Part shown: in pieces, positions 3,081 to 20,789 of the stretch | How the letters are laid out: every line of letters starts with the position of its first letter | Numbering within the stretch: position 1 is the first letter of the stretch | NCBI GenBank assembly: GCA_963718915.1 | Contig: CAVRAI010000003.1 | Coordinates: 120,001-152,000, forward strand | Source: an uncultured Chloroflexia bacterium | GTDB taxonomy: Bacteria > Chloroflexota > Ktedonobacteria > Ktedonobacterales > JADMIN01 | Direction of reading: 5' to 3' | DNA length: 32,000 nucleotides | Notes under the pieces: generated by a model | Seen by the model: the letters and a program-made list of their open reading frames with translations, nothing else | The model's database searches: none | What the model was told of the DNA's origin: nothing | Made by a program: the position numbers and the translations under genes

Positions 3081-6000
3081 CTATCCACCGATCTCGGCGA
3101 GCGCCCGCTCGACATGTTCGGCATAGAAGCGCTCGCCCAGACGGTTGAGGATGGCCAGCGCCGCCGTGAAGCGTTCGCGCGCACGTTCTGGCTCACCCTG
3201 CGCCAGATGCAACTGGCCGTAGACGTAGAGAGCTTTAGCTTCGGCATAGGGATAAGGCATCGAATGAGCGAGGGAGACGGCCTCATCAAGGTATTTCTCA
3301 GCGTCCTGCCAGCGTTCTTGCTTCATGGCCAGGAGCGTCTTCACGCGCAGGTGATCGGGAGCATAGCTTCTCCAGTGCATCTGCCGGTCTCCCTGCTCGA
3401 GGTAGGCAGCCGCTCCCTGGTCATCACCCGATGCAAGCGCTGCCCAAGCAAGCAACGTGACGGGGTGAATCATGCCGGTTGGAACGAGGTGGTAGTCGCG
3501 TAGCGGCGCAAGGCGCTCGGAAGCCCGGTGCGGAGCGTTGTCCAACAGGTCGCGCTCGGCTAGCGGAAGTTCAACTAAAGCAAGGTGCTCGGCACTCCGA
3601 TGGCCGAAATTAGTCAAGATCTCCTGTACGATCGCCACATCCTCGGACTGCCCCTGGGCAAGTACTAATTCTGCGAGCGTGCTTACAACGAGCACTCTAG
3701 CGCTCAACGCTGACGTCTCGTTTGGCTGACAGAGCGGGAGTGCTTGCTCCAGGAGGCGTTGGGCTTCTGTCCACTCTCCCCGCTGGTACGCATAATACGC
3801 TAGACCGTTGAGCGCGATCGCAACATCCTCTGGAACGCCGACGCGCTCTGCGTACTCGAGCGCTAACCGGAATAGGCGTTGTGCATCCTCGTCTATGCCA
3901 TACTTGCCATAGATAATTGCGCTATACATCGCCGCGTCGTACGAGAGCGACAAGTCTCTCGTAGACTCGGCCAGGCGTACAGCTTCCTTGTAGAGGGCAA
4001 TCGTCTCATCGATCCGAGGCTCACTTCCGTATGCCAGACTTGTCGCATAAGTGAGAGAAGCTTGCGCTTCCAGCTTAACATCGTCTGCTGTCTTGGCCTC
4101 AAGCCATGCTTGTCGCGCAAGATCCTGCGCGGCAACCTCGTCTGCACGTGTGGCATAACCAAAGTTAGCACCCATCACATTAAACACATTGTAGGAATCG
4201 GACACCGCAAGGTGCACAGCACTGGCGGTTGCTGGAGAGACAACATCCGCGATGTCAAAGTGATCGGCAGCGCCTGTTACGACTGCTCCTGCTGGCAAGC
4301 TCTCCTTCCTCAGCGTGGCGAGTAGCCCCGCCAACACCCGATAGCGTTCTATGCCGTGCTGAGGAATGCGTTGCTGATTATCTAGAGTGATCAACAAGGC
4401 CGTTGCTCGCGCTACCCCATCGAGATCGTTTACTGCACGGAACAGGTCGAGCGTCTGATCACCCAGCTGGCGCGCGTCATCCAAGCGGGCGTGACGCCGC
4501 ATCAGGGTGCCTAGCTTCAGGAGAGCCTCGGCCTCACGTACACGATCATCCAACTCATGAGCCAGTCGGGCCACCGTGCGATACTGGCGCTCCGCCTCGG
4601 CGTGCGCGTAGACCGCCTCAGCCTGGGCGCCTGCCTGTAGCGCATACGGCAGGGCGTGGTCGGGCGCGCCCCCTTGGGCAAAATGCCAGGCGAGTTCCGC
4701 CGCCTGGCGACTCGCTCCCGGCAGTTCCTCTAATGCCTCGGCGATATGTCGGTGCGTCGCGGCGACACGCGCGGAACCCAGATCGGCCACAATGACCTCG
4801 TGGATCAGATCATGAGCGAATACATAAGAACCGCCCGCGCCTTCCAACAGGAATTTCCCTGCGCCGCGTCATGCAGCCCATCGAGCGCGTCGGCCTCTGA
4901 GAGAGAGAACGCCTTGCCAACGGCCAACAGCACATTAGGCGCGCTACGCCTGCCTGCCACTGCCGCGATACCTAGCAGGCTCTGAGCATGGGGTGGCAAA
5001 ATCGCTATCCGCTGGCGAATGCTATCGGTGACATCGTCCGGCACGTCCGCAAGTTCTGGCTCACCATCAGCGACCAGCCGGTCGGCGTCAAGTCGCTGCG
5101 CATAGCTCACCAGAAACAGTGGCATCCCGCCCGCGCGCTGGAGCACACGCTCTCTGGCTCCGACCAGCGCCTGATCGCCTGGTTCCTCGATGCCTAGTAG
5201 GTTATTGAGCAGCACGCTGGCATCTTCAGGCTGCAATGGCTCAAGTTCGTGGCGGATAGCCAGCGATTCGCGCATCAGTTCATGCTGCAGCACGCTGAGC
5301 GGGTGTTGCGGCTGCACTTCAGTGCTGCGATACGCGCCGAAGATGCGTAGTGGCGCTTCATCGGTGGCGGCGCGAGCAAGTGTAGCCACCAGATCAAGGG
5401 CGTCGGCGCCCGCCCACTGAAGATCGTCGAGGATGAGCAGCGCGCCTGTTGGGCCAGACAGGTTGGCGAGGTAACGGCCCACCGCCGCGAACATGAGCGG
5501 CGCTCCTGCGGTGGCGGAAGATTCCACGCGGCGCGGGACGAGCGTTGTCTCCGCCAGTTCAGGGAGCAGGCGCACCAGCCAGGAACAGCCTTCCAGGTCG
5601 GTGCGTAGCTGCGATGGATATTGCCCGTGGATGCGTCGCTCTAACGCCGTGAGTATCGGCGCATACGGCTCCTGCCCACTGCTCCGGTGGCAACCACCTT
5701 CCAATACAGCCCAGCCACCGACGCGCGCCATCTCGGCGGCCTCACGCAGCAGCCGTGTCTTTCCGATACCTGGCTCGCCCGAGAGGAACAGCACGAGGTG
5801 GCCCTCGCCCGCCAGGTGACGTTCGAGCAAGGCGAGTTCAATCGCGCGACCGATGAGCGGCGCGCCGGATGTGGGGACGGCAGCCGCGACGCTGGCAGGA
5901 GAGGATATCCGTTGGCGGGCGGCGGACTCGAACATGGTGCGGTCAGCATCGGTCAGATGGAGGGCATCAGCCAGGAGCGCGACCGTCTCTCTGCGTGGGG

Positions 6001-6141
6001 CGCGCCGCTCGCCGCGTTCGAGCGCGCCAATCCCCTTGGCGCTCAACCCCGCCCGCTCGGCCAACTCTTCCTGGTCAGCCCCGCGGCCCGTCGGGAGCGT
6101 CGCAGCAGATCGCCAAACGTGTGGATGGATGCCGTCGCCAT
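3081..6141 (-). pseudogene. XRE-type HTH / AAA+ (STAND-like) ATPase / TPR-repeat transcriptional regulator, reading frame broken twice
   Basis: One continuous domain architecture is spread over three minus-strand frames. (i) ATG 6141, with GGAAGGA upstream, gives MATASIHTFGDLLRRSRRAAGLT, the first half of an XRE HTH. (ii) The frame of ORF 4805..6301 continues from ~6075 with QEELAERAGLSAKGIGALERGERRAP and Walker A GEPGIGKT. (iii) ORF 3081..4847 continues with (GKFLL)EGAGGSYVFAHDLIHEV plus TPR-like repeats. The shifts map to ~6070-6078 and ~4856-4868. Confidence 0.8.
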
Positions 6142-6407
6142 CGGAGGATTTCCTTCCGCGTGCAGGCAATACTAAACCTTTTCCAGGATCTGACACCGCA
6201 ACACAGATGACATCATAGCACGTAATTCGGGCCAATGAATAATCGTGTTGTGAGCAAAGTCGCCGAATTGTGGGAGCGATTGTGGGAGGATGTGGGAGCA
6301 TTGTGGGCGTTGTGTGTCGAGAAATCGCCGCGCGCGGGACACACTTGAGACATCACATCGCGGTGAGGCGCTGGAGCAGGGTCTACAGCCATCCCGCCCG
6401 ATGACTC

Positions 6408-6833
6408 ATGAAAGGAGCGGCAGCTACTATGTTGACCACGAATCAGACACAGAATCGGCCCCGGTCGCCACTCTCCCGCTTCGCGCGGGTATTCGCGCTG
6501 GTTGCTCTAGCGCTGACGCTGGCCGTCGCCATTGAAACCACCATTGCGCTCACCAGGCGAAGCGCGCCCAACCACACCTCCGTCGCGGCGGCGCAACAGC
6601 AGTATCGTGACCCCTATGCTGGCGGGTACCGCACGGCCAGCGGACAACTTTTGTTGCATGAGACGCAAATGAATGAGTCCACTATCGCCTGCGTGCGCAT
6701 GCCGCGCGGGCAGTCTCACTGGCTCGACACGATGGAGCCGTACGTGCTGGCTGATGAGAACGTTCGAGTCATCGGCGGGCAGTATGCGGCGCGGCTGATC
6801 GCGATGGAGTCGGGCACAGCGCTGGCGTGCTAA
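6408..6833 (+). CDS. Hypothetical membrane-anchored protein
   Basis: The likely start is the in-frame ATG 6429, preceded by AAAGGAG (6411-6417). N-terminal hydrophobic anchor FARVFALVALALTLAVAIETTIAL. No recognisable family. Confidence 0.6.
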   Translation: MKGAAATMLTTNQTQNRPRSPLSRFARVFALVALALTLAVAIETTIALTRRSAPNHTSVAAAQQQYRDPYAGGYRTASGQLLLHETQMNESTIACVRMPRGQSHWLDTMEPYVLADENVRVIGGQYAARLIAMESGTALAC

Positions 6834-6880
6834 GCATAGTCAGCGAACACGAGAAAGCACAAGAAAGGTGGATAAATACG

Positions 6881-7087
6881 ATGCCAGCGACTATACGGAA
6901 TCCGCGCAGACTCGCAGCCACTGCCATCTTCGCACTGCTGCTTATGGTTACGCTCGCAGCCTACGGACGACTAAGCGCACCCGTGACCGCAAAGGTAGGG
7001 TCGGCCAGGATCGCGCTGCCAGTTATTGTTTGCCCCTCGCAACCGGCAGAAGACAACCTTCCTCCGATTCCGCGTCACCCTCACTAG
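6881..7087 (+). CDS. Small hypothetical membrane or secreted protein (68 aa)
   Basis: An internal ATG of ORF 6827..7087 is preceded by AGAAAGGTGG. The product is MPATIRNPRRLAATAIFALLLMVTLAAYG, a positively charged N-region followed by a hydrophobic helix. Confidence 0.45.
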   Translation: MPATIRNPRRLAATAIFALLLMVTLAAYGRLSAPVTAKVGSARIALPVIVCPSQPAEDNLPPIPRHPH

Positions 7088-7270
7088 CCCCCAGCTTACG
7101 CGCTGCCTCCGACGAAGCGGCGCATGGGGCAGTAGGTGTAACACAAATTAGCGATAGGGGCGCCATTGACAGGGAGCGCCCTGACTATGATGAGGCGACT
7201 GGATCGGCGCCCCCCGCGATGAGCAATCGCATGCGCCAACCCAGCCGCCTCCTCGTTTTCCCATTATTCG

Positions 7271-7327
7271 CTAGAAGCTGGGGTAGATGCCACGGATGAC
7301 GCCGAGGCCGCCGAGAAAGTAGACCTT
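7271..7327 (-). pseudogene. Relic 3' end (last 19 codons plus stop) of a second copy of the major capsid protein gene
   Basis: 7269-7328 matches 9849-9908 at 56/60 nt. It translates to KKVYFLGGLGVIRGIYPSF*, identical over the last 18 residues to the C-terminus of the 506-aa capsid protein. An in-frame TGA lies immediately upstream of the fragment. Confidence 0.75.
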
Positions 7328-7521
7328 CTTGGCTCACTGTCCAGCCCGGTTCACGATAGTCCATAAATGGCCTAGAATCTCGCCGTCCGCTTAAGGTTGT
7401 AGTCACAATCGTTCGTCGCTGTCCATGCGCACTGGGGTCAAAATTGGGGTCATATCAACCAAGCTGACTTTCTCATATTACCTGGAGACGATTCCGGAGG
7501 AGCAGGTCAACCTTTGTGAGA

Positions 7522-8589
7522 TTAAGGGTTTTGGAGAGTCCCTCGAAATATTCGAGAATTCAACCCGATTCCTCGCACAGAGATTCCGGTAATGTTTCCT
7601 TGCTGCAACGAAGTGCTATCCAGTAGAACACTCTCCGGCGCGGTATTAGATGTACCAATGAGGTAATCCATCAGAGCCTGTCCTGCTTCCATATGTTCGA
7701 CAGTAGCTCCTGCTAACAGGATCCCTTTATCTTTTGAAGAATAGAATTCCAAAATTTCTGCATAGTAATTGTCTCCAACAGTATATACGCTCACTTGTCC
7801 ACCTGAGGTTAGATCTTTAACGGATGGGACTACGGACGGGTCTCCTTTTCCACTTCCGTCTAGATATGCCGTTTCAACAAGGATTTTATTGAGGCCTTGT
7901 ACTTGCGATGGGTCTGCATTTTCGTTGTTTGCAACATTATCTTGCCCAACAAGAATAATCCTGTATTCGTATGCCTTCGTTACTTGGTTAAGTCGCTTGA
8001 CAGCATACTCCCAAAACGATTTGCCATTAATTATCGTCGTACCATCACCATTAGGATTTGATCCAGGCAACTTAATTGCGGCAAGAAAATGAAGCTCGAA
8101 TGCATAGCCACTTTCAGATGCGTATACGCCCCATGGCTCTTTTATGATCGGATGCGTTGGATCTGTCCACTTATGATCATATGCTCCATATCCGGGAATG
8201 TATTCCAACATATCAAACTCTGTATCTTTGATTGCAGCGTCCACTCTTTGTTTGACCTTAAGTTGCTCTTGCCGTTGTTGTGGAGTTAATGCTGATGGAT
8301 TAGCAATCAAAAGCGCACCGACATCATGGTTTACTAGAAGTGTCTCCCATGTCGTCTGCGGCGCTTTTGTTGGGTTCGCAGTTGCTGCTGGTCTCGTAGG
8401 TCGAAGCGTTGCAGATCCGCCTTGTTGAGCGCACGCACTTACTGCTCCTCCAGCAGTCCCGAGTATTCCGACCGTCAGAAGGAACCGGGATACCCACATC
8501 AGTATTCGGTGTGCAACTTTCCCAGAGTCTTTCTGGCCGCCCTCGAGGTGGCCTGGTCGGGCACTGGATATCCGCTTGATCAACAACAT
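7522..8589 (-). CDS. Hypothetical lipoprotein or secreted protein encoded by a low-GC (foreign-looking) gene
   Basis: ORF 7522..8610. ATG 8589 has the best SD (GAAAGGA, 9-nt spacing); the alternative is ATG 8499 (MWVSRFLLTVGILGTAGGAVSAC, a lipobox-like A-V-S-A-C). Sampled lines in the gene body hold 21/60 and 24/60 G+C, against 36-46/60 in flanking genes. Confidence 0.7.
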   Translation of the reverse strand: MLLIKRISSARPGHLEGGQKDSGKVAHRILMWVSRFLLTVGILGTAGGAVSACAQQGGSATLRPTRPAATANPTKAPQTTWETLLVNHDVGALLIANPSALTPQQRQEQLKVKQRVDAAIKDTEFDMLEYIPGYGAYDHKWTDPTHPIIKEPWGVYASESGYAFELHFLAAIKLPGSNPNGDGTTIINGKSFWEYAVKRLNQVTKAYEYRIILVGQDNVANNENADPSQVQGLNKILVETAYLDGSGKGDPSVVPSVKDLTSGGQVSVYTVGDNYYAEILEFYSSKDKGILLAGATVEHMEAGQALMDYLIGTSNTAPESVLLDSTSLQQGNITGISVRGIGLNSRIFRGTLQNP

Positions 8590-8811
8590 ACGCAAGCATC
8601 CTTTCAGCATAGCCTTGGCACTAGTTTACTATATCGCCCGCATGATTGGCTAGTCGCTGTCAGATGTGCTCGTATTCGTCCGACGTGTAACCCAATGTAG
8701 CCTCTTCCTCACCTGTGGTGCGGACAGTTCGTTCGGAGTCAGTATGGGTAAATATCGCGGGACGATGAAGCTTTGGCAGGCACTTTCCACGCTTAAGAGG
8801 GAACTGGCTTA

Positions 8812-9671
8812 GAACCTGTTAAAGACTCAAGGTCAAGTGGATGAATTGATGCAACATCAAGCAGGCAAAGGCCAAAAAATGCAGGCCCGCCAAGGTCTGG
8901 GCCAAGCGCTCGTAGTCGCGCGCCAGGCGGCGGAAGCGCGCCGTCCACGCGAAGCTGCGCTCGACGACCCAGCGGCGGGGCAAGAGGACAAAGCCGCGTT
9001 TGGCCTCAGGCAGCTTGACGACCGCCAACTGAATGCCGTGCGCGGCCGCAGCCGCGGCGGGCGCATCGCCGGTGTAGCCCTGATCGACATAGGCCAGTTC
9101 CACCGTCTCGCCCGTCACCGCCTGCACCGCTGCCGCCGACTCCTCCACCTGGGCGCGATCCTGTTCGTTGGCGGGCGTCACCACCAGCGCCAACAGCTCG
9201 CCCAGCGTGTCCACCGCGGCATGGACTTTGGAGCCGTTGCGCCGTTTGTGCCCGTCGTAGCCCGCCCGCGCCCCGCTCTCGGCGGTCGATTGGATCGTCC
9301 GGCTGTCCAGAATGACGGCGCTGGGAGACGCGGATCGTCCTGCCGTCCGGCGCAGCAACACGCGCAGGTCCTGCACGATCTGCTCAAAGCAGCCTGCGTC
9401 CAGCCAGCGGCGCATCTGCTGATAGACCACTGGCCACGGCGGCAAATCATGGGGCAGCATGCGCCAGTGCGCCCCGGTTTTCACGATGTAACGCACACCA
9501 TTGAAGACCTCGCGCAGGTTGTGACGACGTTGGCTGGCGGTTTCCGACAACAACGTCAAATAGGGGGCGACGAACGTCCATTCGTCGTCGCTCACATCAG
9601 ATGGGTAGGGGGTGCGTATGGTTGACATACCCTACCATATCACTACTCAACGTCAAGTCTTTAACAGGCTC
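8812..9671 (-). mobile_element. IS5-family (IS427-group-like) insertion sequence, 860 bp, with a TA target duplication
   Basis: Terminal inverted repeats are GAACCTGTTAAAGACT (8812-8827) and the reverse complement of 9656-9671, GAGCCTGTTAAAGACT (15/16 match). TA flanks both ends (8810-8811 and 9672-9673). A single transposase ORF fills the element. Confidence 0.85.
8819..9628 (-). CDS. IS5-family DDE transposase (269 aa)
   Basis: N-terminal [15 protein letters not shown]...[23 protein letters not shown] is typical of the DUF4096 plus DDE_Tnp_1 transposases of the IS5 family. The ORF spans nearly the whole IS, and its stop lies inside the left inverted repeat. Confidence 0.9.
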
Positions 9672-9674
9672 TAG

Positions 9675-9707
9675 GAGGGAACTGGCTTAGGAGGGAACTG
9701 ACTCGAG
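9675..9707. repeat. 16-bp tandem repeat GAGGGAACTGGCTTAG; a further copy at 8797-8811 is separated from these by the IS
   Basis: Copies at 9675-9690 (perfect) and 9691-9707 (degenerate: GAGGGAACTGACTCGAG). 8797-8811 plus G9674 makes a third perfect copy once the IS and one TA are removed. Confidence 0.8.
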
Positions 9708-9800
9708 TTGCATCGACTTACCAGCACTAAATACGAGGCAGAGTACCGATATATGGCGAGAGATTACAAGAATCGACGTGCAGTAGCGAGGAAAACGAGT

Positions 9801-9829
9801 CTGCCCCTCCGCATTTCAGGGAGGGGCAG
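9801..9829 (-). terminator. Stem-loop terminator downstream of the capsid gene
   Basis: CTGCCCCTCC (9801-9810) pairs with GGAGGGGCAG (9820-9829), a 10-bp GC-rich stem with a 9-nt loop. On the minus-strand RNA it is followed by ACUCGUUUUCC. It lies 22 nt after the capsid stop. Confidence 0.6.
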
Positions 9830-9850
9830 ATTTTCCGGTTGGTCGGCGCG

Positions 9851-11371
9851 CTAGAAGCTGGGGTAGATGCCGCGAATGACGCCGAGGCCGCCGAGGAAGT
9901 AGACTTTCACGGTCTCGTCGATGTAGTCGGCGAAGCGGAAGTTGCTGTCGGTGACGGCGAAATCCACGCCCCAGTATTCCTGGTTCGTCTCGATCTCGAT
10001 GGCCGCGGAGACCTCCGGCACAGGGAAAGGCACCGAGACCGGCAGGAAGACCATACATCCCTGCGGGCAGTAGCGATCCAGGATGATCGGGATCTCGCGC
10101 CCCGTGCTCTTGTTCAGATAGCGGGTGACGCGGTACTGCGCCGTGAGCTGCCCCTGATCGGCGCTGTCGCCCGCCTGGACGACGTAGCGCAACTGGCCGG
10201 AGCCCACCACCAGATTGGTCAGCCGGACGTTATCCAGCGGATTCATGATGATGTAGTCGGGGTCACCCGCCGCCTGGAGATACATCCCCGCCAGCAGGTT
10301 ATCGATATCGGCCAGCGCCAGCTTGCCTGTCGCGTCGGCGGGCTGCGCCACCTGCGCGCCAAGCGTCGCGCCGTTCGTCAGGCTGGTGTTGTTGAGCGCC
10401 TGCGCGATGATGCCGTCCCACATCAGCGGCGAGCCAGAGCCATCCACGAACGTCTTGGCGGTGTTCGCCGCCACCGTCGAGAGGGCGGTACCGGAGGTCG
10501 CGGGCGGCGCGGAGACCGTCAGCGGCAGAATGGCGGGATTCACCTCGCCCGATGGCATCACTGTCGCCCCGTCGGCCAGTGTGACCGTCGCGCCAATCGC
10601 GGGCTGTTGCGCGTTCGCGCCGGAGATGCCCGCCTGGAGCCACATCGCGCTATCAGCGGGCAGCGAACCGCCGGAGCCGATGTAGATGTTGTACTGGGTC
10701 GCGTTCGGCACGGTGAAGACGGTAATCGTCAGCGTCGAGGTACTGCCGGTGGTGACGATCTTCGTCACGGGTGAGGCGGTTGTCTCGCCCTGGGCGTTCT
10801 TCGCCGTCACCTTCACCCAGTACGTGCCCGCCGCGACGGTACCTCCACTGGCCGATGTTGCGACTACCGGCGCGGGCGGCGCCATCAGATACGTGGACGC
10901 GCCGAGCAGCCAGCGCTCCTCGGTCATCTTCAACTGATAGAGTAGCTCCGCGATGCGCCGCGCCCGCACGTCACTTTCGAGCGCGCGGCCACGCCACTGC
11001 GCCTGGAAGCTGACGGCGTTCATCAGGCCGATGGTCTGCATCGTATTTTGTAGCGACGCCACCGCGTACGTCACCTGGCTTGGCGTGCCGCCATCCGCCA
11101 GCACGCCCCAGTTGCGCGAGGTGTCGAAGCTGGTGATCGCCTTCCAGTGGACGACGTCAGTTCCGTTGCCGCGCCGCCGTGGCAGCATATTCACCAGCGG
11201 CGTCACCACCGGCACGATCACCTTCGCGGGCGTCTCCAGCTCATAGCCCACTAGCCCGCTGGCCATCGTAATCGCGCGGGTCGCGTCGCCCATCGCCTCG
11301 CGCACCAGCGCCACCGTCTCATCACCTATTGTTGCCCCTGCCGTCCCCGGCAGATAGACCGCGCTTGCCAT
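9851..11371 (-). CDS. Putative HK97-fold phage-type major capsid protein (506 aa) with an inserted FN3/Ig-like domain
   Basis: SD AGGAAAGGA lies upstream of ATG 11371. The gene sits directly after a prohead protease and a small helical protein, in canonical head-module order. Its size and the N-terminal TPLVNMLPRRRGNGTDVVHWK and AELLYQLKMTEERWLLGAS segments resemble capsid proteins as I recall them. Residues ~165-235 (GTVAAGTYWVKVTAKNAQGETTASPVTKIVTTGSTSTLTITVFTVPNATQYNIYIG) look like an FN3/Ig insertion. The fold assignment is inferred, not computed. Confidence 0.7.
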   Translation of the reverse strand: MASAVYLPGTAGATIGDETVALVREAMGDATRAITMASGLVGYELETPAKVIVPVVTPLVNMLPRRRGNGTDVVHWKAITSFDTSRNWGVLADGGTPSQVTYAVASLQNTMQTIGLMNAVSFQAQWRGRALESDVRARRIAELLYQLKMTEERWLLGASTYLMAPPAPVVATSASGGTVAAGTYWVKVTAKNAQGETTASPVTKIVTTGSTSTLTITVFTVPNATQYNIYIGSGGSLPADSAMWLQAGISGANAQQPAIGATVTLADGATVMPSGEVNPAILPLTVSAPPATSGTALSTVAANTAKTFVDGSGSPLMWDGIIAQALNNTSLTNGATLGAQVAQPADATGKLALADIDNLLAGMYLQAAGDPDYIIMNPLDNVRLTNLVVGSGQLRYVVQAGDSADQGQLTAQYRVTRYLNKSTGREIPIILDRYCPQGCMVFLPVSVPFPVPEVSAAIEIETNQEYWGVDFAVTDSNFRFADYIDETVKVYFLGGLGVIRGIYPSF

Positions 11372-11397
11372 GTTGTTATTGTCCTTTCCTTAGTAGG

Positions 11398-11463
11398 CTG
11401 GCGGTTAAAACCGCGCCTAAGGGCCTCGCTCCGCTCCGCCACGAAGTCCGCCTGCGCGAGACT
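11398..11463 (+). repeat. Hairpin-rich intergenic repeat, family 1, copy 1 (inside the capsid operon)
   Basis: GCTGGCGGTTAAAACCGCGCCTAAGGGCCTCGCTCCGCTCCGCCACGAAGTCCGCCTGCGCGAGACT aligns along its length with 12958-13025. Confidence 0.75.
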
Positions 11464-11486
11464 CTTCCGACTACAAACGTCATTGC

Positions 11487-11759
11487 TCATTCGCCCCGCT
11501 GTTGCAGGCGGATCAGTTCGGCGGCGATGGCCACCTGTACCTGCGGATCGAAGACTTCCCCCGCGAGTGATTCGAGCGCGCGATATTTCTCCCTGGCGGT
11601 GGATGCGCCCATCTGCCCGCGCGCCGTCAGGGCGGACGATTTGTCTACGGGCCGCGCCGCTGGGCCGCCCGCGAGCGGCTGGCTCTCCAGCGCCATCACC
11701 CTTCGGTTCAGCCCGCCGACCTCGCCCGCCATCTGTTGCAACGACGCCTCTATCGTCAT
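11487..11759 (-). CDS. Small alpha-helical protein (90 aa), putative scaffolding or head-assembly protein
   Basis: ATG 11759 lies 3 nt after the protease stop; an alternative GTG at 11774 overlaps the protease end. Third-position G/C is roughly 80%. The sequence is helical and coiled-coil-like (IEASLQQMAGEVGGLNRRVMALES...AIAAELIRLQQRGE). It occupies the scaffold position between protease and capsid genes. Confidence 0.5.
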   Translation of the reverse strand: MTIEASLQQMAGEVGGLNRRVMALESQPLAGGPAARPVDKSSALTARGQMGASTAREKYRALESLAGEVFDPQVQVAIAAELIRLQQRGE

Positions 11760-11761
11760 CG

Positions 11762-12598
11762 CTAGCGCCCGCACGCCCGCATCCAGCGCAACAATTTGAA
11801 TGCGTTATCCGCGAGTCCCGCGGCCAGCGCCCGCGCCAGCGGCTGATCGTCGGCCTGTGGCCCGGCCTCGCGCTCGATGGGCAAGCGCACATCGGCCAGC
11901 AGCGCCCGCGCAGCCACACATACTGTGCAGCCGCAGCCCGTCAGCACTGCCTGCGCCGCGCCATGCAGTCGCGCGCGATTCGCCTGCTCCGGCGTTCTCG
12001 CATCCACCACGGCTGACTCGTCCAGTGCGCCCGGCGCGTCCGACTCATCCACCTCGGTGGCTGGCTCGTCGAGCAGATCGAGCAGCGCGATATCCGGCGT
12101 GGCGTCGCGCACGAACGCGACCCCCAGCGCGTCAGGATTGCTGGGGTTATCCACCAGACTCAGCTCCACCAGGTCATAGCGGGTCGCGACATTGAGCGAG
12201 CGTTGCTCGCCCGCCACGCGACGTCGCTGCCGCTGCCAGACCACTCCACTGGCGCCGATGCTTGCCCCACGCAGGGTGCCGTCCAGCACCTTCTCCCAGG
12301 TGTCTTGCGCGCCGCGCGAGATACGAATGCGGACGTAGATACGCCGCGTCTCGTCGTCGCAACGCACCGCCACGCGCGAGCCGACCGCCTGCCGTCCGTG
12401 CATCTCGCGCACGTTGCCAATCCAGCGGGTGAACGCATCCTTGCTGGCGCCGTAGTCGAAGATCGTGCCGTGGCTATCCACCGTCTCGCTGGTGGCGCAC
12501 AGCTCGATTTCGCGACGTGGGGCATCCACACGCACAATCGGCGCAAACCCGATCCGCGCCGTGCCAGTCATAGCTGGCGTCTCTGACGTATCTGGCAT
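11762..12598 (-). CDS. HK97-family phage prohead (maturation) serine protease, Peptidase S78/U35-like, with an acidic, Cys-containing C-terminal extension
   Basis: Diagnostic blocks are FAPIVRVDAPRREIELCATSETVDSHGTIF (catalytic His context), LRGASIGASG (Ser context) and YDLVELSLVDNPSNPDA. The start is uncertain: ATG 12598 has SD GAGGT at 8-nt spacing, with alternatives at 12571 and 12640. The 359-aa ORF extension to 12841 runs into the promoter and is rejected. Confidence 0.85.
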   Translation of the reverse strand: MPDTSETPAMTGTARIGFAPIVRVDAPRREIELCATSETVDSHGTIFDYGASKDAFTRWIGNVREMHGRQAVGSRVAVRCDDETRRIYVRIRISRGAQDTWEKVLDGTLRGASIGASGVVWQRQRRRVAGEQRSLNVATRYDLVELSLVDNPSNPDALGVAFVRDATPDIALLDLLDEPATEVDESDAPGALDESAVVDARTPEQANRARLHGAAQAVLTGCGCTVCVAARALLADVRLPIEREAGPQADDQPLARALAAGLADNAFKLLRWMRACGR

Positions 12599-12621
12599 AT
12601 CTGACGACCTCAGATACGTCA
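12584..12621 (-). promoter_or_regulatory. 11-bp perfect inverted repeat forming a hairpin over the protease SD and start codon
   Basis: The minus-strand RNA reads UGACGUAUCUG-AGGUCGUCAGAUAUGC-CAGAUACGUCA. The SD-like GAGGU straddles the 5' arm and loop, and AUG (12598) lies in the 16-nt loop. Confidence 0.5.
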
Positions 12622-12728
12622 CCCGGCCGCTCGCCGTCATCCCTCTCCGGCGCTGGCAATATTCTTCCGCGCCCCCATAGAGTCTGCCCTCCCTCCACAC
12701 AACCTCAGTTCGTCTACAAATAGGCAAA

Positions 12729-12772
12729 ACGCCGCTCCCATCCCGAGATCTGCCATCGGGAGGAAGCGGCGT
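12729..12772 (-). terminator. Intrinsic-terminator-like hairpin in the 5' leader of the capsid operon (possible attenuator or antitermination target)
   Basis: The minus-strand RNA reads ACGCCGCUUCCUCCCGA-UGGCAGAUC-UCGGGAUGGGAGCGGCGU, followed by UUUGCCUAUUUGU. It lies ~50-95 nt downstream of the predicted -10 and ~130 nt upstream of the protease start. Confidence 0.55.
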
Positions 12773-12829
12773 CCTGTCCAGACTGACCGCATACGTTGCC
12801 GCACTACACGAACAACTGGCGACGCCACA

Positions 12830-12858
12830 ATCATAGAACATATGTTCTTATTTTGCAA
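12830..12858 (-). promoter_or_regulatory. Sigma70-like promoter (-35 TTGCAA, 17-nt spacer, -10 TATGAT) with an embedded LexA/Cheo-type SOS box AGAACATATGTTCT (12835-12848)
   Basis: The minus strand reads TTGCAAaataAGAACATATGTTCTATGAT. The 14-bp perfect palindrome matches the GAAC-N4-GTTC core of the B. subtilis-type LexA operator (consensus CGAACATATGTTCG) and fills the spacer. Confidence 0.65.
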
Positions 12859-19937: not shown

Positions 19938-20789
19938 CTACCGGTGGCGCAGCAGGAAGTCGAGCGCGACCTCGCGCATCAGCGGCGTGATGGCGTGATC
20001 GAGGTGCGGCAGAATGCTCAGTTCGCCGTGGGGCAGCGTCCGGTAGGCGGCGACGCCTTCCTCCGGCGTGCAGTAGTAGTCGCGGTCGCCCACCAGCACC
20101 AGCGTCGGGATGTCAATCGTTGCCCAGTCGGCGATGGTGTACTCCATTGGCTGCGTCCACATCGGGAAGATATCGCGCAGCAGCGACCGCCACGCGCCCT
20201 CGCCCTGCGCCTCGTCTACGTCGCGCACCATTCGCTGGAACCACTCCTGGTCACTGCTCTTGCTGGCGAAGTAGTCGGGGTCGGCCTCGGTGGCGTCGGG
20301 ACTGCCACCCATGCGCCGCCGCAGCCGTGTGAAGCCGTGCGCCTGGGGATTGAAGACATCGTAGCCCGCAATGTTGACCAGCGCCCGCGCGATGCCTGGA
20401 TGGCGAATCGCCATGACAGTACCGGAAATCGCCCCATCGCTGAAGCCGCAGACCAGCGGACGCTCCAGCCCCAGCGTGGCGATCAGCGCGGCCCAGTCGT
20501 CCGCCAGCAGCGGATAGCTCATCGGCGTCCCATCGTTGCGCGTTGAGCCGTGGGCGCGGGTATGCGGCGCGATGACACGGAAGTGGCGGACGAGCGTGGG
20601 CAGGTGATCGATCCAGCCCCACTCGTGCCCGGCCCAGACCGCGCTGGTGGAGGCCATGCCACCGTGCAGCAGCAAAAGTGGATCGCCCGCGCCCGCCTCC
20701 AGATAGTGAATGCGTAGCCCGTTCGCCTCGACATCATGTTCAGTAAAAGCAATCTGCAGCTCATCAGATCGTTTGTACGTCGGATGCAT
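19938..20789 (-). CDS. Alpha/beta-fold hydrolase
   Basis: The oxyanion-region motif is LLLLHGG and the nucleophile elbow is GFSDGA. ATG 20789 has SD GAGG at 6 nt; the upstream ATG 20801 lacks an SD. Confidence 0.85.
   Translation of the reverse strand: MHPTYKRSDELQIAFTEHDVEANGLRIHYLEAGAGDPLLLLHGGMASTSAVWAGHEWGWIDHLPTLVRHFRVIAPHTRAHGSTRNDGTPMSYPLLADDWAALIATLGLERPLVCGFSDGAISGTVMAIRHPGIARALVNIAGYDVFNPQAHGFTRLRRRMGGSPDATEADPDYFASKSSDQEWFQRMVRDVDEAQGEGAWRSLLRDIFPMWTQPMEYTIADWATIDIPTLVLVGDRDYYCTPEEGVAAYRTLPHGELSILPHLDHAITPLMREVALDFLLRHR

Follow-up and report, generated by a model that had tools for sequence, protein, structure and literature searches.

A displaced capsid-gene 3' end in a Ktedonobacterales chromosome, best explained as a recombination scar

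Why should the end of an intact gene for a phage-type capsid protein be present twice in a bacterial chromosome, with foreign DNA between the two copies? The question is raised by a 32,000-nucleotide (nt) stretch of the genome of an uncultured Chloroflexia bacterium (Ktedonobacterales; assembly GCA_963718915.1, contig CAVRAI010000003.1, positions 120,001 to 152,000), referred to hereafter as the window. The predicted capsid gene of the window ends in 60 nt that recur beyond its stop codon, on the far side of a low-GC segment and an insertion sequence (IS). For comparison we recovered forty-eight genomic loci and several metagenomic loci; they are cited below by L numbers. Two arrangements of these loci bear on the repeat. 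In the T-type arrangement the capsid gene is followed by a terminator, a convergent gene of 305 amino acids (aa) and EcsC, and in the E-type arrangement it is followed by a 3.9-kb segment, E-seg. The repeat is best explained as a new example of an already known kind of recombination scar, in which a T-type end is in use and the end of an E-type allele has been displaced. It shows no evidence of a function of its own, and on this reading it is not a working site.

Two alleles of one gene end

The capsid gene and the two copies of its 3' end lie in the window as follows.

9851-11371, minus strand: intact, chromosomal gene for a major capsid protein of the HK97 type, 506 aa, with matches to SU10_MCP and phrog_13692
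9849-9908, minus strand: repeat copy B, the 3' end in use, of the T-type allele; it is made up of 1 nt, 18 codons, TAG and CG, and its last 58 nt are those of L048
7269-7328, minus strand: repeat copy A, a relic of the 3' end of an E-type capsid allele, now displaced, with a TGA in frame before it and not expressed as capsid

The direct repeat of 60 nt was confirmed by self-alignment and translation. The copies at 7269-7328 and 9849-9908 agree at 56 of 60 positions with a spacing of 2580 nt, and the BLAST self-match (E = 3e-20) is far above chance expectation for 32 kb. In the reading frame of the 506-aa open reading frame (ORF) 9851-11371 on the minus strand, the repeat takes in the final nt of codon 487 and codons 488-506, then the TAG stop with 2 nt past it, and both copies encode KVYFLGGLGVIRGIYPSF*. 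All four differences (AAA/AAG, TTC/TTT, ATT/ATC and CGC/CGT) are synonymous third-position transitions; the probability that four of four would be silent was 0.003 under random substitution and 0.012 with transitions only. At the upstream edge of the relic homology ends abruptly, at 7328/7329, and an in-frame TGA lies three codons upstream (...GQ*AKKVYF). The first-pass annotation of this DNA had described the match, its four silent differences, the common peptide, the TGA and the abrupt loss of similarity upstream, and was right in each.

The relatives show where each copy belongs, by way of three further features.

9788-9850, minus strand: T-term, a terminator-like hairpin and U-tract just 3' of the capsid stop, common to L001, L005, L007, L048 and L049
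9777-9787: stub of the "common downstream" DNA of T-type loci, 8-11 nt (GCTACTGCACG), which includes the stop of the convergent 305-aa gene; junction J1 follows at about 9776/9777
3081-7268: E-seg, the native downstream flank of E-type capsid alleles, which directly abuts the capsid stop in L004, L057 and L058

Loci L001, L005 and L048 share the upstream synteny of the window (helicase, protease, capsid) at 85-92% DNA identity, with about 70 nt past the capsid stop also in common, and the short contigs L007 and L049 carry the same downstream flank. T-term, which was missed by a simple terminator scan, has a predicted RNA fold of -29.3 kcal/mol (z = -3.9). It is followed by GCTACTGC(ACG), which holds the end of the convergent 305-aa gene with its stop codon, and then, in T-type loci, by EcsC. 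In L001 the convergent gene occupies 11591-12508 (minus strand) and ends at a motif matching the stub in the window.

L004 likewise has window-like upstream synteny, with a 3.9-kb E-seg block between the capsid stop and the 303-aa and EcsC genes. Two metagenome contigs, L057 and L058, were fetched with the 141-aa protein encoded in E-seg. In all three loci the capsid stop is joined directly to the flank that the window carries at 7268 and leftward. These are empty sites of the kind that the first-pass annotation had suggested looking for in relatives.

When L004 (4068-7975) is compared with L001 (11524-11589), E-seg exactly replaces the 66-nt terminator between the capsid stop and that of the convergent 303/305-aa gene, with no duplication left; the swap of E-seg and T-term is a clean indel with its ends at gene ends. 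At least five different flanks were found 3' of the capsid stop among the loci, several of them with the same helicase and protease synteny (L001, L003, L004, L005, L009). Because the downstream flanks differ among many otherwise similar loci, the stop codon is the edge of a flexible region.

The relic is identical to L057 in its first 36 nt and across the adjoining flank, and this downstream flank is collinear with E-type loci. The variant bases of the relic occur in functional E-type alleles (AAG, ATC and CGT in L004 and L057; TTT in L058), and from every functional allele it differs by silent changes only, with none that is non-synonymous. The variant bases and the collinear flank together identify the relic as the end of an E-type allele. 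The last 58 nt of the functional copy are identical to those of T-type L048, with 1-2 differences from L005, L049 and L001 and 6-7 from L057 and L004. Past the functional copy, T-term and 8-11 nt of the end of the 305-aa gene, homology to every relative ends at about 9776/9777. Since the 58 nt, T-term and the stub of the 305-aa gene are contiguous, the donor piece was a contiguous piece of chromosome of a T-type allele.

The number of differences between the copies is that expected of orthologues. The capsid gene is under strong purifying selection: compared with its relatives it has a ratio of non-synonymous to synonymous divergence (dN/dS) of 0.07-0.10, with dS of 0.27-0.35 and dN of 0.03, and a count of four silent changes and no replacement in 19 codons agrees with this divergence. 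On this comparison the synonymous-only pattern is pre-existing allelic polymorphism. With the E-type variant bases and the collinear flank, it bears out the earlier proposal that the relic had diverged as part of a functional capsid gene. A recombination breakpoint in the capsid-protease region was sought by sliding-window identity against nine relatives and site by site over the last 153 nt. None could be resolved, since identity is about 90% to every relative and the capsid gene is a mosaic over its whole length.

The DNA between the copies

The interval between the two copies holds, beyond the T-type flank, DNA of foreign origin in two parts and the IS.

7329-8811: foreign low-GC DNA, distal part, 41-52% GC, carrying the orphan ORF 7522-8610 (minus strand); junction J2 is at 7328/7329
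8812-9671, minus strand: IS5-family insertion sequence of about 860 bp, with a transposase ORF (8819-9628) and imperfect terminal inverted repeats
9674-9776: foreign lower-GC DNA, proximal part, for which no relative was found; it includes two of three GGAGGGAACTGGCTTA 16-mers

Besides the IS, the foreign low-GC DNA totals about 1.6 kb. ORF 7522-8610 (minus strand) lies in DNA of 41-47% GC, compared to 62% for the whole window, and encodes a putative lipoprotein with a plausible lipobox (VSAC). It had no family match in Pfam, PHROG or NCBIfam and no match in plasmid or phage collections, and of 5.8 billion proteins searched the only homologous one is a fragment in L056, with 100% identity. L056 is another assembly of essentially the same organism, with 96.5% identity and many indels. 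The proximal low-GC DNA showed no homology to any fetched locus other than L056.

The transposase places the IS in the IS5 family (NF033580, 203 bits against a cut-off of 110; Pfam domains DDE_Tnp_1 and DUF4096). The IS is present in a single copy, with a target duplication of TA (or TAG) at 8810-8812 and 9672-9674, and sits within three tandem copies of the 16-mer GGAGGGAACTGGCTTA (8794-8812 and 9672-9706). Its own TA(G) duplication inside the 16-mer array marks it as a later, simple insertion; it is secondary, and incidental to the repeat. The content of 7329-9848, a low-GC lipoprotein gene and an IS, was thus as first described.

No integrase is left in the insert, as had been stated: scans of the insert and of the other large ORFs of the window with Pfam, PHROG and NCBIfam profiles found no recombinase, only the IS5 transposase. 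A tblastn search of the window with a serine recombinase from one relative, L051, found nothing. By tblastx, the insert of the window and those of L030 and L051, two loci described below, share no sequence.

Proposed recombination between lineages and its rivals

Read on the capsid strand, the locus consists of the T-type capsid end, T-term, the neighbour stub, J1, about 1.6 kb of low-GC DNA with the IS, J2, 58 coding nt of E-type and E-seg. Both J1 (about 9776/9777) and J2 (7328/7329) are non-homologous junctions. The identity of the two alleles, the empty sites, these two junctions and the secondary place of the IS are observed; the recombination pathway and the resident allele we infer. A locus of this build calls for DNA of a second lineage and for a joint in register with the capsid gene on one side at least, for which HFIR-like recombination is the simplest route. 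We hold with about even confidence that the repeat is a displaced gene end, a passive scar of horizontal import and one-sided illegitimate joining, resembling homology-facilitated illegitimate recombination (HFIR). HFIR is defined as an event in which one end is joined through homologous recombination and the opposite end through illegitimate recombination (PMC3240628), and has been proposed for orphaned 3' ends in type VI secretion system (T6SS) and rhs arrays (PMC5361080).

The import would have taken place between lineages about 10% diverged. One side would have been anchored by homology, either within the capsid gene or beyond E-seg at its far end, while illegitimate joining closed the other 58 nt before the resident stop, with the stub thus retained. 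Two histories could have led to this result. An E-type recipient may have gained T-type DNA that was already linked to the low-GC segment, or a T-type recipient may have gained an E-type fragment beginning by chance 58 nt before the capsid stop. The IS5 element would have entered the low-GC DNA later. An HFIR scar should show an incoming segment that is allelic at one end and runs on into non-homologous DNA, and a non-homologous joint with the old end behind it. In the window orphan low-GC DNA follows without a break on the T-type capsid end, T-term and the stub of the 305-aa gene, and the joint at 7328/7329 is non-homologous with the E-type 3' end kept downstream. The first-pass annotation had offered, as one of two mechanisms, recombination or deletion between related capsid modules. 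Recombination survives from that proposal; tandem modules reduced by deletion do not, for what are joined here, via foreign DNA, are alleles of one locus (dS about 0.3).

The locus can be compared with C-terminal displacement in rhs, contact-dependent inhibition (CDI) and Vibrio T6SS effector-immunity systems, where a new 3' gene part likewise comes in with cargo (PMC3240628, PMC5361080). There, as is proposed for the window, homology guides one end and the joint at the other is illegitimate; in both, the old 3' end has been moved downstream and kept as an orphan stub, and the event recurs at one locus across strains. Unlike in those arrays, the stub in the window encodes the same peptide and no C-terminal function was gained. 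The gene here is a phage capsid homologue and not a toxin, there is a single stub and not an array, and the pathway is one that we reconstruct from the locus.

Several observations weigh against an HFIR-like scar. The comparison turned up neither a donor nor a recipient at more than about 90% identity, so the homologous crossover was not located. Codon 483 (ATC, Ile), close upstream of the repeat, is shared only with E-type L057, with ATG in L048 and GTG in the others. If this sharing is not convergence, the crossover lay within about 15 nt of the repeat boundary, which is predicted by a site-specific event and not by HFIR. Both duplications found, of 58 nt here and of 116 nt in L030, are short and end at the stop, as would the arm of a gene-restoring attachment (att) site, and elsewhere integrases do take genes of this capsid family as their attachment sites.

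A Campbell-type single crossover within the 58-nt homology was considered separately and rejected. It predicts hybrid copies, and neither copy is one: the left is T-type in full and the right E-type in full.

Similar events at capsid genes were found in other genomes. L030 is an independent case of a capsid 3'-end relic, with a 116-nt repeat at 10286-10401 and 20048-20163, 9.7 kb apart. The two copies differ at 10 nt without any amino-acid change, the differences including AGC/TCG (Ser) and TAG/TGA (P < 1e-5 by simulation). The L030 insert encodes a 1037-aa Gly-rich Big_3_5 protein and other unknown proteins, and no integrase was detected in it. In L051 (535-2187, equal to L064 3286-4938) a 550-aa ORF for a large serine recombinase runs in frame into a capsid relic, which consists, from 2095, of the last 30 codons and is followed by host ABC-transporter genes. 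Intact homologues of this recombinase (P0123-P0125) have 608-616 aa and an HTH-like tail, and one is in a phage-like contig. One homologue has QWQNANNAGLDETLK where the capsid protein has QWQFANYVDETLK, which suggests that attP may lie inside the serine integrase gene and attB in the capsid 3' end, and that integration would truncate the integrase.

A capsid gene is also split in IMGVR_UViG_3300005573_001593, by a phage-like element of about 80 kb, and resumes 79,955 nt later. Its N-terminal fragment (codons 1-117) abuts a tyrosine integrase. A 20-nt core at codons 111-117, CAG(A/C)CGATCAGCCTGATGAA, is present in both halves, together with a match to ACGTATGCC upstream. The regions concerned are listed here.

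L061, 6025-6459 and 6754-7896: regions of IMGVR_UViG_3300005573_001593
L060, 10154-11341: region of IMGVR_UViG_3300005573_001593

Helper-embedded phage-inducible chromosomal islands (HE-PICIs) are satellites with integrases directed at late genes of prophages, most often at the one for the major capsid protein (PMC10111431). L051/L064 and the IMG/VR contig resemble them in the choice of target alone, a capsid gene that is used by a mobile element. The related Ktedonobacterales elements differ in that they are about 80 kb long or of the serine-recombinase type and in that their target is a stand-alone chromosomal protease-capsid pair. HE-PICIs, which carry an integrase, disrupt the capsid gene with an identity block of about 10 bp (PMC10111431), whereas the window has an intact capsid gene and no integrase. 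In L015 (11440-11523) there is a frame change in the capsid gene near codon 480, within the 3' part where the relic boundaries also fall; this could be a sequencing error or another scar.

In Escherichia coli, e14 and phage 21 integrate in the 3' end of icd with the gene restored, and many islands treat tRNA and tmRNA genes in this way. The icd gene has been termed a well-known prophage site (PMC10111431). A decayed element of this gene-restoring kind would make 9849-9908 attL and 7269-7328 attR, with the crossover at codon 487/488 and with the integrase and most of the cargo lost. We regard it as the main rival, though as an unlikely origin of the repeat. As at the icd att sites of e14 and phage 21, the 3' end of the target is repeated at both ends of the insert with mostly silent differences, the gene is intact and there are empty sites (L004, L057, L058). 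The repeat runs from an abrupt boundary to two bases past the stop. The left copy is wholly of donor type and the right copy wholly of resident type, as expected for a crossover at the upstream edge, and codon 483 is common to E-type L057. L030 would be a second, longer example. The capsid family serves as attB elsewhere, for the serine recombinase of L051/L064 and the tyrosine integrase of the IMG/VR contig, and the HE-PICIs are a precedent for integrases that target capsid genes (PMC10111431).

The contents of the insert argue the other way. Unlike at icd, searches of 7329-9848 and of the remaining window brought up no integrase, no excisionase and no pseudogene of one, and the insert consists of 1.6 kb of orphan low-GC DNA and an IS. 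The replacement arm also differs from that of e14 and phage 21 in including chromosomal flank. It runs past the gene into the T-type terminator and the stop of the convergent neighbour, and an extra step of aberrant excision would be needed. The boundary is not reused: it is at codon 488 in the window, 469 in L030, about 477 in L051 and 111-117 in the IMG/VR contig. The two cases that do carry an integrase split the capsid gene and do not restore it, and, as said, the inserts of the window, L030 and L051 are unrelated in sequence. The other mechanism of the first-pass annotation, a site-specific element that supplied a replacement end, was therefore not upheld: there is no recombinase, and the DNA beside the functional copy is contiguous T-type chromosome rather than the trimmed arm of an att site.

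Rearrangement within one genome between two paralogous capsid modules, in which ectopic recombination, translocation or deletion would have brought DNA from downstream of one module beside the other, the relic being the remainder of the second paralogue, seems to us distinctly improbable. Several genomes do hold at least two copies of the module, and copies about 90% identical occur in different contexts (L008 and L001). Against this, both flank types are found at the same locus with the same helicase and protease synteny and behave as alleles, and the foreign low-GC filler is left unexplained. A second module is not demonstrable in this genome, which is seen over 32 kb only.

Target duplications of IS5-family elements are 2-4 bp long, not 60 bp. 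That the repeat is a target duplication or by-product of the IS, or an assembly chimera joining two strains through the repeat, is scarcely credible even though the IS lies inside the bracketed segment and the end of the independent contig L056 falls exactly at 9849, a break of the kind that assemblers make at repeats: the IS ends are 1.5 kb and 0.18 kb from the 60-nt repeat, the copies differ by allelic polymorphisms and not by post-duplication mutations, and the low-GC/relic and T-term/low-GC junctions are both present in the second assembly, L056, neither of which a chimera can create. A target duplication or composite transposon is effectively refuted by the TA(G) duplication that the single IS copy has of its own.

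The capsid family and what the scar would mean

The prediction that ORF 9851-11371 encodes an HK97-fold major capsid protein holds, given a profile match above the curated threshold (Pfam SU10_MCP, 35.3 bits, cut-off 24.1) and the head-module context. The match to phrog_13692 (E = 4e-56), the protease gene upstream and a distant similarity to the annotated major head protein of Alicyclobacillus phage MMB025 likewise justify the label "capsid" that the gene had been given at first. A PDB sequence search with the protein gave no match, and by exact-protein look-up it is without a database record. Its detectable homologues number 214, nearly all of about 506 aa, at identities from 95% down to 55%, and those that are taxonomically labelled are mostly from Ktedonobacterales (Chloroflexota). 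A literature search on capsid genes of Ktedonobacteria found nothing relevant. The partner of the capsid gene and the ORFs of E-seg are the following.

11762-12841, minus strand: gene for a prohead (head-maturation) protease, the constant partner of the capsid gene (phrog_9427, E = 3.6e-30; partial match to NF045541)
6881-7087, plus strand: 68-aa ORF of E-seg with a transmembrane segment
6408-6833, plus strand: 141-aa ORF of E-seg
4805-6301, minus strand: HTH-AAA_16 ORF of E-seg (Pfam)
3081-4847, minus strand: TPR ORF of E-seg (Pfam)

The protease gene is kept upstream of the capsid gene in all loci compared. Its conservation across the family is limited to about 450 nt (window about 12060-12560); in all loci the C-terminal part of the protease and the protease-capsid spacer, including a 95-aa ORF at 11487-11774, are highly variable (window 11372-12100). 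Across Ktedonobacterales the capsid and protease genes stand alone as a module of two, set in ordinary chromosomal surroundings (window 9851-12841; L001, L004, L053-L055). In one copy, L052, portal and terminase genes adjoin the homologous capsid gene. Some genomes carry at least two copies of the module, for example CP126532.1 (L024, L031), CAVPBB01 (L018, L038) and DASQSS01 (L025, L027). The protease-capsid pair could be a domesticated capsid or a conserved satellite-like remnant.

None of the other sizeable annotated genes of the window is phage-like; they are of cellular type or without a family match. The neighbours include a DEAD-box helicase, a BNR protein, methyltransferases, an aminotransferase, a leucyl aminopeptidase, HTH-AAA-TPR regulators and a PQQ propeller protein. 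In E-seg the HTH-AAA_16 and TPR ORFs overlap by 43 nt on the same strand, and 3081-6301 may be a single STAND/MalT-like regulator split by a frameshift.

A broader proposal would make the capsid 3' end a dedicated docking site in Ktedonobacterales, comparable to a tRNA gene, for integrase-less cassettes or islands that bring a replacement end of 60-116 nt and depend for their insertion and removal on a recombinase encoded elsewhere. We give it little chance. If it were true, two sites would be occupied, one in the window and one in L030, and the prophages with serine or tyrosine integrases found in this gene would be relatives of that system.

Taken as a gene end displaced by import, the scar preserves a clean record, and one that can be dated, of gene flow between lineages of Ktedonobacterales that differ by about 10%. 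It also sets the border of a hypervariable region at the capsid stop codon, a point of more weight for annotation and population genomics than for mechanism. Of greater interest than the scar itself is its context. A protease-capsid pair without other phage genes has been kept under strong purifying selection across an order of sporulating, mycelial Chloroflexota, at least two kinds of prophage use this pair as an integration target, and recombination has struck it repeatedly as well. If the pair is a domesticated compartment or a satellite-like module, the recombination traffic there, at its 3' end, would be relevant to the way in which it is maintained.

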